NCBI GenBank assembly: GCA_905250115.1
Contig: CAJNOI010000116.1
Span: 158,664 to 177,027, forward strand
Reading direction: 5' to 3'
Origin: Adineta steineri
Lineage: Eukaryota
Length of the DNA stretch: 18,364 bases
The number at the start of each line of letters is the position of its first letter. Within the stretch, counting starts at the first letter, position 1. Below are positions 49 through 10,149 of this stretch, one piece after another. The translations under genes and the position numbers were made by a program. The notes beneath the pieces were generated by a model. It was not told where the DNA came from, searched no databases, and saw only the letters and a program-made list of their open reading frames with translations.

Positions 49-1446
49 TCAAGTGCGTGGTTGTTGATGACGAATATTGGCTTGAGCATTTCCATTTACA
101 GTTGGTGGTAATACATTCTGATTAATATTAATTGTATTGTTTCCAGTTGTACATCCAGCTAATCGATAAATAATCTTAATAAATTTAATAAATTCATCAC
201 GAAATAATTTTGATGTCAAACAATGAACATAGAAGTTGATCTATATACAACATATATAAAAGTATTGATATCACATTATATATATACATTTAAGGAATTA
301 TTTTCAGCATTAATCTTTCATTAGTCTTAATTATTATTGAAAAATATGGAAATCTATTTTTCTAGACTATTCTCTTCTGCTACTTATTGAATAATTAAAA
401 CAAAACAATAGAATTCGATACTCATTAAAAAGAAACTTATTAAAATAATTCTTTAATGACTTACGGCATAGTTAAAGCTGAGTAATACAGTGAGTATAGC
501 TGTTTCATTGACAATTTCATTTTCATCAATTGTTGTATTAGCAAAAATTGCATAGGCAGCTACAATTTGACGAATACTAACAGGTAATGTTGTGATAAAG
601 AATATCATGATACTTGATATCATCAAAATCAACATTTGTCGATGTAAACGTGCTTGACGTAACTGCTGTGTCTGATTCATTCCAACTGTTTGAATACGAG
701 ATTTTGTTTTTTGTATAGTTCGATGAATGTCAATACTGCCAAGAAGCATCAATGTTGCAGGAATTAGACAAACAAAGAATACCTTATAGACAAAAATAAA
801 AAGAATATCTTTCATATATGAAATCGTCTGAGTCTCTTACTTGAATGAAAGGCCACTGAACAAAAAAAAATAATGTATATGGAGTCCAAAGCTGTACAGG
901 TCCACATGCTACTGTTGCAATACCAGGGAAAAATTTACCAAAGAATTCAGCACTCAACATATGACTATGTAGACTAATTCCAACAATTATAATGCATATT
1001 GTAACAATGATGACATTCTTATGTGTACACCATTTATTAGCTTTAAATGGTAAACGTGTTCTAAGCCACCGATCAATTGTGACAAACACAAGAATCCAAG
1101 CTGAACAGAATTGAGTCAAGCCCTTCAAGAACCAACGAAATCGACATAAACTATCGTAGTTTGTTAATAGAATTGGTTCTTGTGTCAAACCAACTTCAAT
1201 AAAGTCAAAAATTGACACAAGTAGAAATAAACTATCGGAGACAGCCAAAATGAGAAAAAGAAAGGCAGTAGAAGTGGCACGTAATGTTATTTGCATAAAT
1301 GTTGCCATACTTGCTAGGTTACCTGTGAATCCACATAGGAATATAAATCCTAATCCATAACGATACAAAAGAACAACAACCGGAGAATTCGAAGGACCAG
1401 TATATACAGATGCATCATAAATAACACTAATATTTGTTGTGTTCAT
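49..1446 (-). CDS. Rhodopsin-like (class A) orphan GPCR, tandem copy 1. Three exons: 841..1446, 465..782, 49..240; product ~371 aa.
   Basis: Seven hydrophobic segments are present, with these class-A landmarks:
- GN in TM1 (FTGNLAS)
- LAVSD in TM2
- Cys in ECL1 and ECL2
- DRW at the end of TM3
- W in TM4 (KWC)
- P in TM5 (WPF) and in TM6 (FFITTLPV)
- N-glycosylation sites in the N-terminus (NTTNIS)

ORFs 784..1446 and 453..815 are joined by a 58-nt intron (783..840; donor CAA|GTAAGA, acceptor ctataag|GTA) that restores a continuous TM5.

Exon 2 ends at a perfect donor GCC|GTAAGT (465), directly after ...SFNYA. A 224-nt intron ends at tatatag|ATC (241). Exon 3 reads INFYVHCLTSKLFRDEFIKFIK..., i.e. 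the end of TM7 plus a helix-8 F-R-x-x-F motif, and runs to a TGA at 49-51.

The same structure occurs in all three copies. Confidence 0.8.
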
Positions 1447-3162
1447 TGTGGTGATATGTTCTCCTTTGATATAGTTAATTGCTTATATTCACTAAGAAAT
1501 ATTTCTCACAGTTTATATATGTTGATAAAGCAATTATATTGTGTATGTAGAATTAAAAAGCAATTATATGAAGTATTATTACGCTAATCTTCTCTCTTGG
1601 ATCAGATGATACTTTGTTTTCACAATATTAACTGAAAAAAGTGAACTTACAGGTACAAGATAAAGTGATGATTGGAATTATATAATAACGCAAGCCTATT
1701 AAAAGTATTTCTATGTAAATAAAGTTTAAAAAACACATACGTCATCGAATGAATTGAACCATTTTAAATTTAAATTGTTTTTCTATTAATTCTCCATAGA
1801 ATTTAATATGTTTAAGCAGTTTTGTTCTTTCCAATTCGTTGCAATACAAGGTATACAGTTAAGACGTTCATCTTCCTTCTCTTCCTTCTATGATTGTTAA
1901 GATATTTTAGACTTCATCATCTATTTTTCACTTGTTATTGACCAATCTTTTCTGAGCAAAATTCATATATTTACTTATCAAGTCATAATAATTTATATAG
2001 AAAATTACATTTTTTTACTGAAGTTTTAACTAAAGTACTAAGCAAAACAAATTTTTAGTTAGAAATAATTAAACTTTTGACTTAGTATTTGCTTAAAACT
2101 ATTTTGCGTTCAAATATGAGCCATTTATAAATAAACTTAATCAGTCTTCATTCTAAATTGATATTAGATTAAGACTGTTAGCTTTTGACTTCACGCTTAA
2201 CAAATGAAATTATATCTTCATCATAATATTCACATTCATCTATCTTTTATTCAAAATATAAAATAGAACAAGAAACGAATTATTATTCTTCGATTGATGA
2301 TTTTCTCTAAAACACGATACTATATACTCGACTTAAATAAGATTTATCTGTTGATATTATCCGATTGTTCGTATATGTATCGAACTCAATACCGTGTTAA
2401 ATTTATCTAAATACGTCGTTGTTTTTCGAATATTTATTTGAATATGTGTCTGATATCTGTAAGAAGTAATAAAATCGTTCAGTAACTACAGTTTTGAAAA
2501 ATCCTGAATATAGTGTTAATCATAATCATTATCAAAAAAATATATTCAATAAGGTAAGTTTTATAATAAAAGATTTTTTGACATTTCTATTGATAGTTGA
2601 ACAACTTCTACAAATAATATACTTGGTAAAAGTAAAATTAATTAATAGGCTTCAGCTTGTAATACCCCATTTTCAAAACTAAATGAAACGTTATGTAAAG
2701 TGAAATGTAATAATCAGAAAAAGACATAATAATGAATTATAAGCACGACTTCGTTTTTTTCATTATCGATAAATTACATTACCACATCTCTCTTTTATCT
2801 TCTCTTTTGTTTGACATTTTTTCTTTCAGTTTTCTATTAATGGTTGTATAAAAAACAACCTAGTCTTTTTTATCTGCATCAGATTTGGTTTGCTTTTCAA
2901 TGAAACTTATATAAATTAACATATTAAGACTATTATACTATATTTCAATAAAAAAAAGTATTCTTTGATTTGGCGGTCTTAGTTTGAATGTCTTCCGTTC
3001 ATCAACCACAATACACCCACACTCAGTGGCTTTTTTATATTAATTGATTATTAATATTAAATAAAATGAAATGACAACAAAAATATTTACAGCAATCAAA
3101 GTCAGAAGAGTTTATGTTCTTGTTATATTGACTATTTCATTTGACAATAATGAATAAAAAAA

Positions 3163-8618: not shown

Positions 8619-8674
8619 ACTTACCGTCTGAAAAACGACTATGTAATTTCTAATGAAGAAACGCGCTTATATAG
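8619..8674 (-). promoter_or_regulatory. Putative upstream promoter / leader-exon donor for GPCR copy 3; the homologue of 5299..5354.
   Basis: The minus strand has CTATATAAGcgcg...acatagtcgtttttcagacg|GTAAGTcta.

Its position is conserved relative to the copy 3 ATG (8092). Confidence 0.4.
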
Positions 8675-10149
8675 ATGTGAAAGAGGCGAAGAGAGAAAGA
8701 TTATCTAGTTTAAATAAAAAAACTAGGAGAAAAAGAACATTAATAATAAGATCGAAGTAGAAAGTGAAAACTAGTTGACTGAGAATCTTGTTATAAATAA
8801 CATGTAAGATTTAATTACAGTCTGTAATTTACTTGATTTGTTATTCTCTCTGACTATAATAAAAATAGAAATATGTTAGTGTTAACAATCGTCCACTAAT
8901 TATAGTTTTGAATACAATGTTAATCATAATCATTATTAAAAAAAAACATATTCAATAAGCTAGATTTTGTAGTGGAAGATTTTTTTATATTTCTGTTGAT
9001 AACGGAACATCCTCCACAAATTATATACTTGTTACAATTATTGGATTCTCTAAGATTAAAATTGTATCCTATTCAAATTAGAAATCTTTCGAAATTAAAT
9101 AAATCTTTAATGTTTAACAATTTGCAATTTTGAAATAAAGTTACAGTAATCATTCTTTTTCTATAAAATGATATAAATTTAAATATTCTCAAATGACGAT
9201 GATTCCATTTATGTCATGAATTCCACATGTGTATTAGTTCAGCTTCTCGGTACTTTGTTAGTTCTATTATCATCATTTCTAATGAGCGCACGTCAATATA
9301 TATAAAAGAAAAATAATTAAACATCTTTGTTTATATTTGGAAGATGTTATAACAAAAAAAAGTGAATGTGAATCAAAACGTAAAATTAATTATTATGCTT
9401 CAGTGTATAAAACGCCATTCTTATAATTAAATAATGAGTTATCTAAAGACAAAAGAAATAATAATGAATTATAAGCACAACTTCTTTCTTTTCATTATCT
9501 CATCTCTTTTATCTTCTCTTTCGTTTGATATTTCTTTTTTTATCCTTTTTTTTATTCCAGTTTTCTATTACTGGTTGTATAAAAAAACAACCTGGTCTTT
9601 TTTTATCTGCTTGAAATTTGTTGTTCTTTTCAATGAAGTTTATTTTGATTAATATATTAAGACTATTATACTGTATCTCAATAAAAAAAAGTGTCTTTTG
9701 ATATTAACCTCAATTTGTACTATAGATGTGTTAACCCAGCGTGTAGATAATCTTCTAGAATATGATTGCTTATTGTTCTCTACAGTGCAACACAATAATG
9801 ATAACTCTGAAAATGATTAAAGAAGCTAAAGTAATACTTTTCGAAGCTATATTTAGTGCAGTCATGTGGAACAGTATGAATTAGGTGTCGGCAGCATCTA
9901 CTATCACTTTGCTATTGTCTTTACGTCTAAGGCATATTTTCAAATCTATCGAATCAATGGGATGAGTTCTTAGATAAATAGAGTTGATGTTGAATTATTT
10001 GGTATAAATTTATACAAATAATTATTATCTAATATTATCATGTATGACTTTGAGAATATTCAGTCTTTCTGATCGTCTTTTTTTTGTAAAGTATATTGGT
10101 AGTATGATTTTCATTCAGAAAGCGAAGTAGGCATTATTTTGCCATTAAA

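Follow-up and report, generated by a model that had tools for sequence, protein, structure and literature searches.

A lineage-specific tandem array of class-A G protein-coupled receptor genes in the bdelloid rotifer Adineta steineri, probably shaped by birth-and-death evolution and mosaicism

Organization of the array

The locus described here is a window of 18,364 nucleotides from the bdelloid rotifer Adineta steineri (assembly GCA_905250115.1, contig CAJNOI010000116.1, positions 158,664 to 177,027 of the forward strand), AT-rich eukaryotic DNA with 24-38% GC. Three direct-repeat units lie head-to-tail on the minus strand at window positions 49-9704, and each carries one gene for a rhodopsin-like, or class-A, G protein-coupled receptor (GPCR); we refer to these genes as c1, c2 and c3. 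An earlier note on this DNA, made from the sequence alone, had presented them as orphan receptors that were duplicated very recently and evolve as a block. The positions and strand that it gave, the number of exons, the size of the units and the length of the protein all proved correct in our gene models and repeat search.

The units measure 3.1-3.5 kb, with start-to-start spacings of 3111 and 3535 bp in the direct-repeat search. When the window was compared with itself, as the earlier note had proposed, self-blastn aligned 1-1684 with 3115-4801 at 91.1% identity, 1-1649 with 6676-8298 at 83.5%, and 2634-4782 with 6215-8316 at 82.6%; all three matches have E = 0, and the units are thus alignable beyond the coding exons. 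Unit homology ends at 9699-9704 in the direct-repeat search, in self-blastn and in the comparison with other individuals, which bears out the array boundary previously placed near 9700. Tandem Repeats Finder left the array, whose period exceeds 500, unreported and returned only small repeats near 10.7-12.5 kb.

Every unit contains one complete gene on the minus strand, built of three exons and two GT..AG introns and encoding a product of exactly 371 aa. Gene c1 occupies 49..1446, with exons 1446-841, 782-465 and 240-49 (including the stop codon) and introns 840-783 (58 nt) and 464-241 (224 nt); it is complete, as 48 bp separate the window start from its stop codon. Gene c2 occupies 3163..4557 (exons 4557-3952, 3893-3576 and 3354-3163; introns 3951-3894, 58 nt, and 3575-3355, 221 nt), and c3 occupies 6724..8092 (exons 8092-7487, 7430-7113 and 6915-6724; introns 7486-7431, 56 nt, and 7112-6916, 197 nt). 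Across the three genes, intron 1 therefore spans 56-58 nt and intron 2 spans 197-224 nt. A TATA-like box precedes each ATG on the minus strand and represents the putative core promoter: CATATATAAAC at 1511..1521 for c1 (~65-75 nt upstream of the ATG), the same CATATATAAAC at 4622..4632 for c2, and CATATAT-AAC at 8157..8166 for c3. In the upstream alignment, such a box is kept ~70 nt upstream of the ATG in 14 of 15 copies.

The spacers, also given on the minus strand, differ in content. The c2-c1 spacer (1447..3162) holds the c1 promoter and 5' flank together with the c2 3' flank; its homology to the other spacers is only patchy, and it is collinear with the unit of copy G2 in L001 at 86-91%. 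Within the c3-c2 spacer (4558..6723), the 175 bp immediately 5' of the c2 ATG (4558-4732) are of the c3 type. The c3 upstream spacer (8093..9704) reaches the end of unit homology, the proximal array boundary, beyond which the array stands head-to-head with a vault-protein gene starting at 10498 (+). No open reading frame (ORF) of at least 80 aa was listed in 1447-3162, 4558-6723 or 8093-10144. A tRNA scan of the window found no tRNA genes and Rfam gave no matches at gathering thresholds, so the spacers conceal no known RNA gene. We also considered hidden genes or transposons in the spacers and rejected them: segments that appear unique in the self-comparison align with the spacers of particular units in other individuals and are unit-type-specific sequence rather than recognizable insertions.

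Receptor identity and predicted fold

Pfam and structural analyses agree with the proposed assignment to the rhodopsin-like GPCRs. Both c2 (47.3 bits, E = 2.4e-12) and c3 (52.1 bits, E = 8.5e-14) match 7tm_1 over profile positions 1-251 of 260, above the gathering score of 30.5 bits. In addition, c3 matches 7TM_GPCR_Srsx with 28.9 bits against a cut-off of 24.1; the Pfam search gave no Srsx match for c2, and Srsx is neither passed by all copies nor the best-scoring family. An AlphaFold2 model of the 371-aa c2 product, built on 27 homologues (predicted local distance difference test, pLDDT, 75; predicted TM-score, pTM, 0.74), contains helices at residues 22-50, 59-88, 97-131, 142-164, 189-232, 239-282, 289-315 and 319-336, corresponding to seven transmembrane (TM) helices and helix 8, the topology that the earlier note had asked to see checked. 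Foldseek against the PDB returned class-A receptors exclusively, with probability 1.00, TM-scores to the target of 0.80-0.86 and 17-19% identity, led by somatostatin (SSTR2), opioid, melanin-concentrating hormone (MCH) and neurotensin receptors. By sequence, phmmer likewise identified SSTR2 as the best solved relative (E = 2e-9). The N-terminus probably lies outside the cell, and its tail contains N-x-S/T sequons compatible with glycosylation.

The protein alignment conserves G39/G42, D71, C101, D125, R126, C181, P210 and P269, and N43 is common to all 12 sequences of a wider alignment. The class-A anchors N1.50, D2.50, R3.50, P5.50 and P6.50 and the cysteine pair joining TM3 and extracellular loop (ECL) 2 (C101, C181) are invariant or nearly so. 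The E/DRY motif is present as I-D-R-W at 124-127, where D and R are conserved and W replaces Y. CWxP is replaced by T-T-L-P at 266-269, which keeps P6.50 without W6.48, and NPxxY by N-F-Y-V-H, placed through the helix-8 F-R-x-x-F anchor and lacking P7.50 and Y7.53. The position of this last motif is conserved and its sequence variant: relatives carry N-F-x-x-Y in TM7, and the consensus of near bdelloid relatives is NFYxH. Because the variant motifs are conserved in these near relatives, they are better understood as ancestral to the family than as decay.

An exhaustive HMMER scan yielded 26 representative clusters at E <= 1e-30 and 685 at E <= 1e-10. The relatives looked up, down to E ~1e-24, were all bdelloid (Adineta ricciae, Rotaria socialis and Didymodactylos carnosus). 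The first non-rotifer matches were a nemertean "neuropeptides capa receptor-like" protein and a clam "FMRFamide receptor-like" protein, both with automatic names, at E ~1e-21 and ~23% identity. These matches suggest a bdelloid-restricted branch near the spiralian FMRFamide-receptor-like expansions, of which Lymnaea stagnalis offers an example with ~450 such genes in tandem clusters of 4-26 (PMC11589774). The label "orphan" is fair in the sense that the sequence searches found no characterized close relative.

The genes are already present, without names, in the public annotation of the A. steineri genomes published by Nowell et al. 2021 (PMC7943196), and our search of the literature on bdelloid and rotifer GPCR expansions found no paper describing the c1-c3 family. 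The c2 product is 100% identical to P0001, "unnamed protein product [Adineta steineri]", and the c3 product matches P0004, on the same 313-kb contig, with an identical row in the protein alignment. We take P0216 (CAF1085209.1/CAF1175072.1) to be the c1 product: it has 371 aa and shares both its 90% cluster and the 313-kb contig with c2. The three proteins carry the accessions CAF1085209, CAF1085229 and CAF1085247 and, in a second series, CAF1175072, CAF1175093 and CAF1175111. Members were listed for 10 of the 11 clusters that have 72% identity or more to c2, and no fourth protein of these series is among them. This suggests just three annotated copies in this genome, an unannotated or mis-modelled copy being possible, and argues weakly against the earlier note's expectation that the array probably continues beyond position 1. 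Inside the window there is no sign of a further unit.

Divergence among the three copies

Over the gene, copies c1 and c2 share 94% identity (94.1% at the protein level), with exon identities of 94.4, 95.6 and 96.4%, an identical intron 1 (100%) and an intron 2 of 89%; their spacers reach 64% global identity with 646 gap columns. Compared with c3, either copy shows 87-92% identity in the exons, 79% in intron 1, about 60% in intron 2 and 58-75% (global) in the spacer, and the centre of c3 intron 2 is non-homologous to that of c1/c2. Overall, the spacers are 58-75% identical globally, with about 650-1150 gap columns and alignable local blocks of 73-83%. The view that introns and spacers are almost as conserved as exons therefore holds for the c1-c2 introns and fails for the c3 introns and for the spacers.

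Synonymous divergence (dS) is 0.14-0.16 between c1 and c2 and 0.18-0.20 against c3; the ratio of nonsynonymous to synonymous divergence (dN/dS) for c1-c2 is 0.16-0.18. The local spacer identity of 73-83% is about what would be expected from the synonymous divergence, which indicates that whole units were duplicated, not exons alone, and that the non-coding sequence then drifted roughly neutrally. Since dS values of 0.14-0.20 are at least as large as the divergence of non-coding flanks among the compared A. steineri genomes (6-10%), the duplications cannot be called very recent, contrary to what the first reading had assumed.

Arrays in other individuals

Syntenic arrays in other individuals all stand head-to-head with the same truncated vault-protein (MVP) gene and carry from 3 to at least 6 copies in differing order. 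In three assemblies, the single-copy flank (window 14881-9451) aligns collinearly at 92-93%, up to a break at 9451, just within the first unit. On the whole gene, the copies fall into three clades with 98-100% bootstrap: clade A (c1, c2, G1-G4, N3, B2), clade B (c3, N2, N5, Y1) and clade C (G5, N1, N4, B1, B3, M1). Counted from the vault-protein gene, the copy order is B-A-A in the window, A-A-A-A-C followed by an unrelated gene in ASTE804, C-B-A-C followed by a peroxidase gene, a B copy and then more in ASTE805, and C-A-C in L005.

Monophyly of c1, c2 and c3 receives 0% bootstrap. Copies c1 and c2 pair as sisters (100%), G2 being their next relative, and c3 groups with N2, N5 and Y1 (100%), which are copies from other individuals; c3 is 90-92% identical to these three and 86% to c1/c2. 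Under concerted evolution, array-mates should be each other's closest relatives, and in the window only the c1-c2 pair is monophyletic, so the proposal that the trio evolves as a block has to be given up. Near-unchanged copy types recur in apparently different assemblies, as with B1 and N1 (98.5%) or B3 and N4 (99.6%).

Outside A. steineri, the nearest homologue in A. vaga (46% identity) is a single gene whose surroundings are unrelated to those of the array, and the nearest homologues in A. ricciae form a tandem pair (~50% identity) on a contig of 10 kb, where no vault gene is visible. An array of 371-aa copies beside the vault gene thus looks specific to A. steineri, and the single A. vaga gene and the A. 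ricciae pair indicate an expansion confined to the A. steineri lineage that predates the divergence of the compared genomes.

Two further observations concern the content of the arrays and the dispersal of copies. The peroxidase gene of ASTE805 belongs to the Peroxidase_2 family and lies within the GPCR array at L002 16089-17180, between N4 and N5; the ASTE804 array is without it at the corresponding position. A dispersed single clade-C copy, annotated with 349 aa, is found away from the array, at L006 10001-11297 (GCA_905250015.1, CAJNOM010000160.1), where Hint-domain and unannotated genes flank it. The sequence upstream of this copy matches the c3 upstream spacer at 77% identity, out to window position 9859, and the locus may be homoeologous or represent the ancestral single-copy state.

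Recombination and mosaicism

Gene conversion or recombination, which the earlier note had raised, is detectable by several approaches. The pairwise homoplasy index (PHI) was 0.374, compared with 0.568 +/- 0.006 in 2000 permutations (p <= 0.0005). A Sawyer-type run test revealed long concordant tracts that join copies of different clades, such as an N5-B2 tract of 131 polymorphic sites at gene positions 6-366. Tract p-values for the window pairs were 0.001-0.004 and do not survive correction for 153 pairs; the case for recombination rests on the global PHI, the segment trees and a promoter swap rather than on these per-pair values. In the segment trees, the clades are solid in intron 2 and exon 2 and vanish in exon 1 and exon 3 (0-1% support). 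The promoter swap is seen at -1 to -175 of the ATG, where c2 and c3 are 86-89% identical and c1 and c2 69-72%, whereas the coding region shows the reverse. This discordance between promoter and coding type marks c2 as a mosaic with a breakpoint at the gene start.

Gene integrity and selection

Eighteen copies were taken from the window and five other A. steineri assemblies. All 18 have 371 codons, no internal stop and GT-AG at both introns. Regional dN/dS, computed across 14 non-redundant copies, is 0.21 in the TM helices and 0.15 in the intracellular loops and helix 8, compared with 1.13 in the N-terminus and ECL1-3 and 1.11 in the C-tail. Mean pairwise amino acid differences follow a similar division, with 35-48% in the N-terminus, ECL2 and ECL3 and 5-12% in most of the core. 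Purifying selection acts on the signalling core, whose G-protein-facing intracellular part (D-R-W, intracellular loop 2 and helix 8) is conserved, and the N-terminus, ECL2, ECL3 and C-tail evolve at a pace close to neutral or above it. Intact ORFs and splice sites, together with a core dN/dS below 1, point to functional gene copies.

A conserved signalling side combined with a changeable ligand-facing side would imply that the paralogues keep the same downstream coupling and differ in what they bind. As candidate ligands, we consider exogenous or chemosensory cues an even call, and we give endogenous peptides of the FMRFamide/capa type a distinctly lower chance.

Flanking genes and repeats

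On the far side of the proximal boundary, window 10498-12408 (+) contains the major-vault-protein-like gene, with N-terminal domains only (Vault, Vault_2, Vault_3 and Vault_4). Its orthologues in other A. steineri assemblies are annotated with 529-530 aa, without any listed shoulder-domain or other C-terminal MVP family; with another gene starting ~300 bp downstream, there is no room for further exons. Immediately beyond the vault-protein ORF on its 3' side, 4.5 copies of a G-rich 16-nt tandem repeat, ATGGGTGGGTGCAGAT, occupy 12444-12515; the repeat also scores as a 32-nt period and coincides with a strong positive GC skew.

A putative ATG27 / mannose-6-phosphate-receptor-like gene at ~12734-14341 (-) can be placed from a 94-96% collinear alignment with annotated genes of L001 and L005. 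Farther along, a gene or exon pair at 15244-16786 (-) encodes first a PAN/Apple domain (16460-16786) and then a Kelch beta-propeller (15244-16281); the matching end of the L005 locus carries a gene with a Kelch domain. Finally, a 118-aa ORF at 17950-18306 (+) comprises three ~36-aa repeats with a consensus of roughly P.P.GYVITRL..NGCGG.G.YIE; it has no Pfam match, and the underlying DNA repeats (18080-18177 and 18188-18285) are 73% identical.

Discussion

Our findings indicate that positions 49-9704 very probably represent the proximal part, possibly the whole, of a lineage-specific class-A GPCR tandem array that evolves by birth-and-death with mosaicism. According to this model, each unit would be a self-contained transcription unit with a TATA-like box, three exons and two short introns; whole units would be gained and lost through unequal crossing-over, and gene conversion between units would add mosaicism. 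Copies c1 and c2 would then be the younger pair and c3 an older type common to other individuals, with the c2 promoter being of the c3 type.

Several considerations count against this interpretation. A loop dN/dS near 1 fits relaxed constraint and diversifying selection equally, and transcription, promoter assignment and tissue are all inferred. With W6.48, P7.50 and Y7.53 absent, activation and coupling may or may not be canonical. The compared arrays come from individuals whose non-coding flanks differ by 6-10%, and they may be alleles, homologues or orthologues of cryptic lineages. Mosaicism and the differences in order could also be partly due to assembly chimeras, as the comparison arrays are largely based on short reads (PMC7943196).

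This last concern leads to a technical explanation, in which short-read or linked-read assembly wrongly connected tandem copies of 85-94% identity, and the true arrays consist of simple duplicates in collinear order. Illumina libraries of single wild-caught individuals underlie ASTE804 and ASTE805, the "maxhap" assemblies are deliberately redundant (PMC7943196), and exon 1 contains 120-bp windows with 96-99% identity between copies where an assembler could switch. Yet the B1-N1 and B3-N4 types recur at 98.5% and 99.6% in apparently different assemblies, all 18 copies are perfectly intact, combinations of promoter and coding type differ systematically rather than randomly, and the three proteins of the window are each recorded under two accession series, so we regard wholesale mis-assembly as improbable. 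Still less credence can be given to three very recent duplicates kept alike as one block, with exons, introns and spacers homogenized and the array extending upstream. The 94% identity of c1 and c2 over the gene, their identical intron 1, the alignability of whole units and the gene-conversion signals are in keeping with such a block; the dS of 0.14-0.20, the large indels in spacers of 58-75% identity, the c1/c2 promoters of only ~70% identity, the non-homologous centre of c3 intron 2, the 0% bootstrap for the trio with c3 placed among N2, N5 and Y1, and the lack of a fourth annotated copy in the same accession series (10 of 11 clusters listed) are not. The least plausible account, to which we attach almost no weight, treats the copies as decaying, non-functional duplicates or pseudogenes in the making. 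Transcription of the copies does rest on inference, and canonical CWxP and NPxxY are absent; nevertheless, 18 of 18 copies retain 371-codon ORFs and splice sites, dN/dS is 0.15-0.21 in the TM and intracellular parts, and the variant motifs are kept in near bdelloid relatives (NFYxH).

A separate question is what the receptors detect. They could be endogenous neuropeptide receptors of the FMRFamide, capa or somatostatin/allatostatin-C type, subfunctionalized paralogues rather than environment-facing chemoreceptors, and this is the alternative that we take most seriously, although we consider it unlikely. Among named proteins, the nearest relatives are labelled "FMRFamide receptor-like" and "neuropeptides capa receptor-like", the best solved matches in sequence or fold are the peptide receptors SSTR2, opioid, neurotensin and neuromedin U, and the N-F-x-x-Y type of TM7 motif is common to the spiralian proteins. 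However, identity is only ~23% in sequence and 17-19% in structural alignment, and the names are automatic. Moreover, copy number and order vary within one morphospecies, the A. vaga homologue is a single copy located elsewhere, and loop dN/dS is ~1, a combination that is more typical of chemosensory or environment-facing families.

Returning to birth-and-death with mosaicism as the preferred interpretation, a more speculative extension, which we consider rather doubtful, is that ectopic recombination and gene conversion have a hotspot in this array, in a host that is putatively an ancient asexual, and that the extracellular face of receptors without W6.48, P7.50 and Y7.53 is being diversified. 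If so, the locus would offer a tractable natural marker of the way in which receptor diversity arises and is reshuffled in bdelloids in the absence of conventional sex, and the receptors might employ a non-canonical activation switch. Lineage-specific tandem clusters of class-A GPCRs are common in invertebrate genomes, and the locus by itself matters little. Its analysis nonetheless documents a bdelloid-restricted receptor clade with variant activation motifs, and structural variation within one bdelloid morphospecies, together with recombination-like mosaicism, is relevant to the dispute over exchange and conversion of genetic material in bdelloids. Furthermore, c1, c2 and c3 provide concrete candidates for deorphanization and expression work on rotifer chemosensation.

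Comparison with known systems

With class-A receptors in general (PF00001; for example SSTR2, opioid and neurotensin receptors), the array products share the fold, helix 8, the anchors and the cysteine pair. They differ in their DRW, TTLP and NFYVH motifs and in a structural-alignment identity of 17-19%, and we do not claim orthology to vertebrate receptors. Parallels are also found in the spiralian FMRFamide-receptor-like proteins, which have the N-F-x-x-Y type of TM7 and the helix-8 F-R motif in common with the array products and have likewise expanded into lineage-specific tandem arrays. The bdelloid clade is separate, however, and Y7.53 has become H in the array subfamily; in the expanded groups, "FMRFamide receptor" is also a name rather than a demonstrated function.

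The nematode Srsx and Srw families (PF10320 and PF10324) belong to the same Pfam clan, and homologues of the array products carry precomputed Srsx/Srw matches. Their tandem, lineage-specific and copy-number-variable style is also that of the array. The Srsx score of c3 (28.9 bits) is far below its 7tm_1 score (52 bits), and c2 has none, which indicates resemblance at the level of the clan, not membership.

Vertebrate olfactory receptor clusters constitute a birth-and-death family with gene conversion between paralogues. Unlike the array, where none of the 18 copies is a pseudogene, these clusters typically have pseudogenes. The host also differs, being a bdelloid and putatively an ancient asexual, in which recombination is presumably mitotic or non-canonical. 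The two systems agree in several respects: both show duplication of whole units, polymorphism of copy number and order among individuals, and mosaic tracts, and in both the ligand-facing side holds most of the variability.

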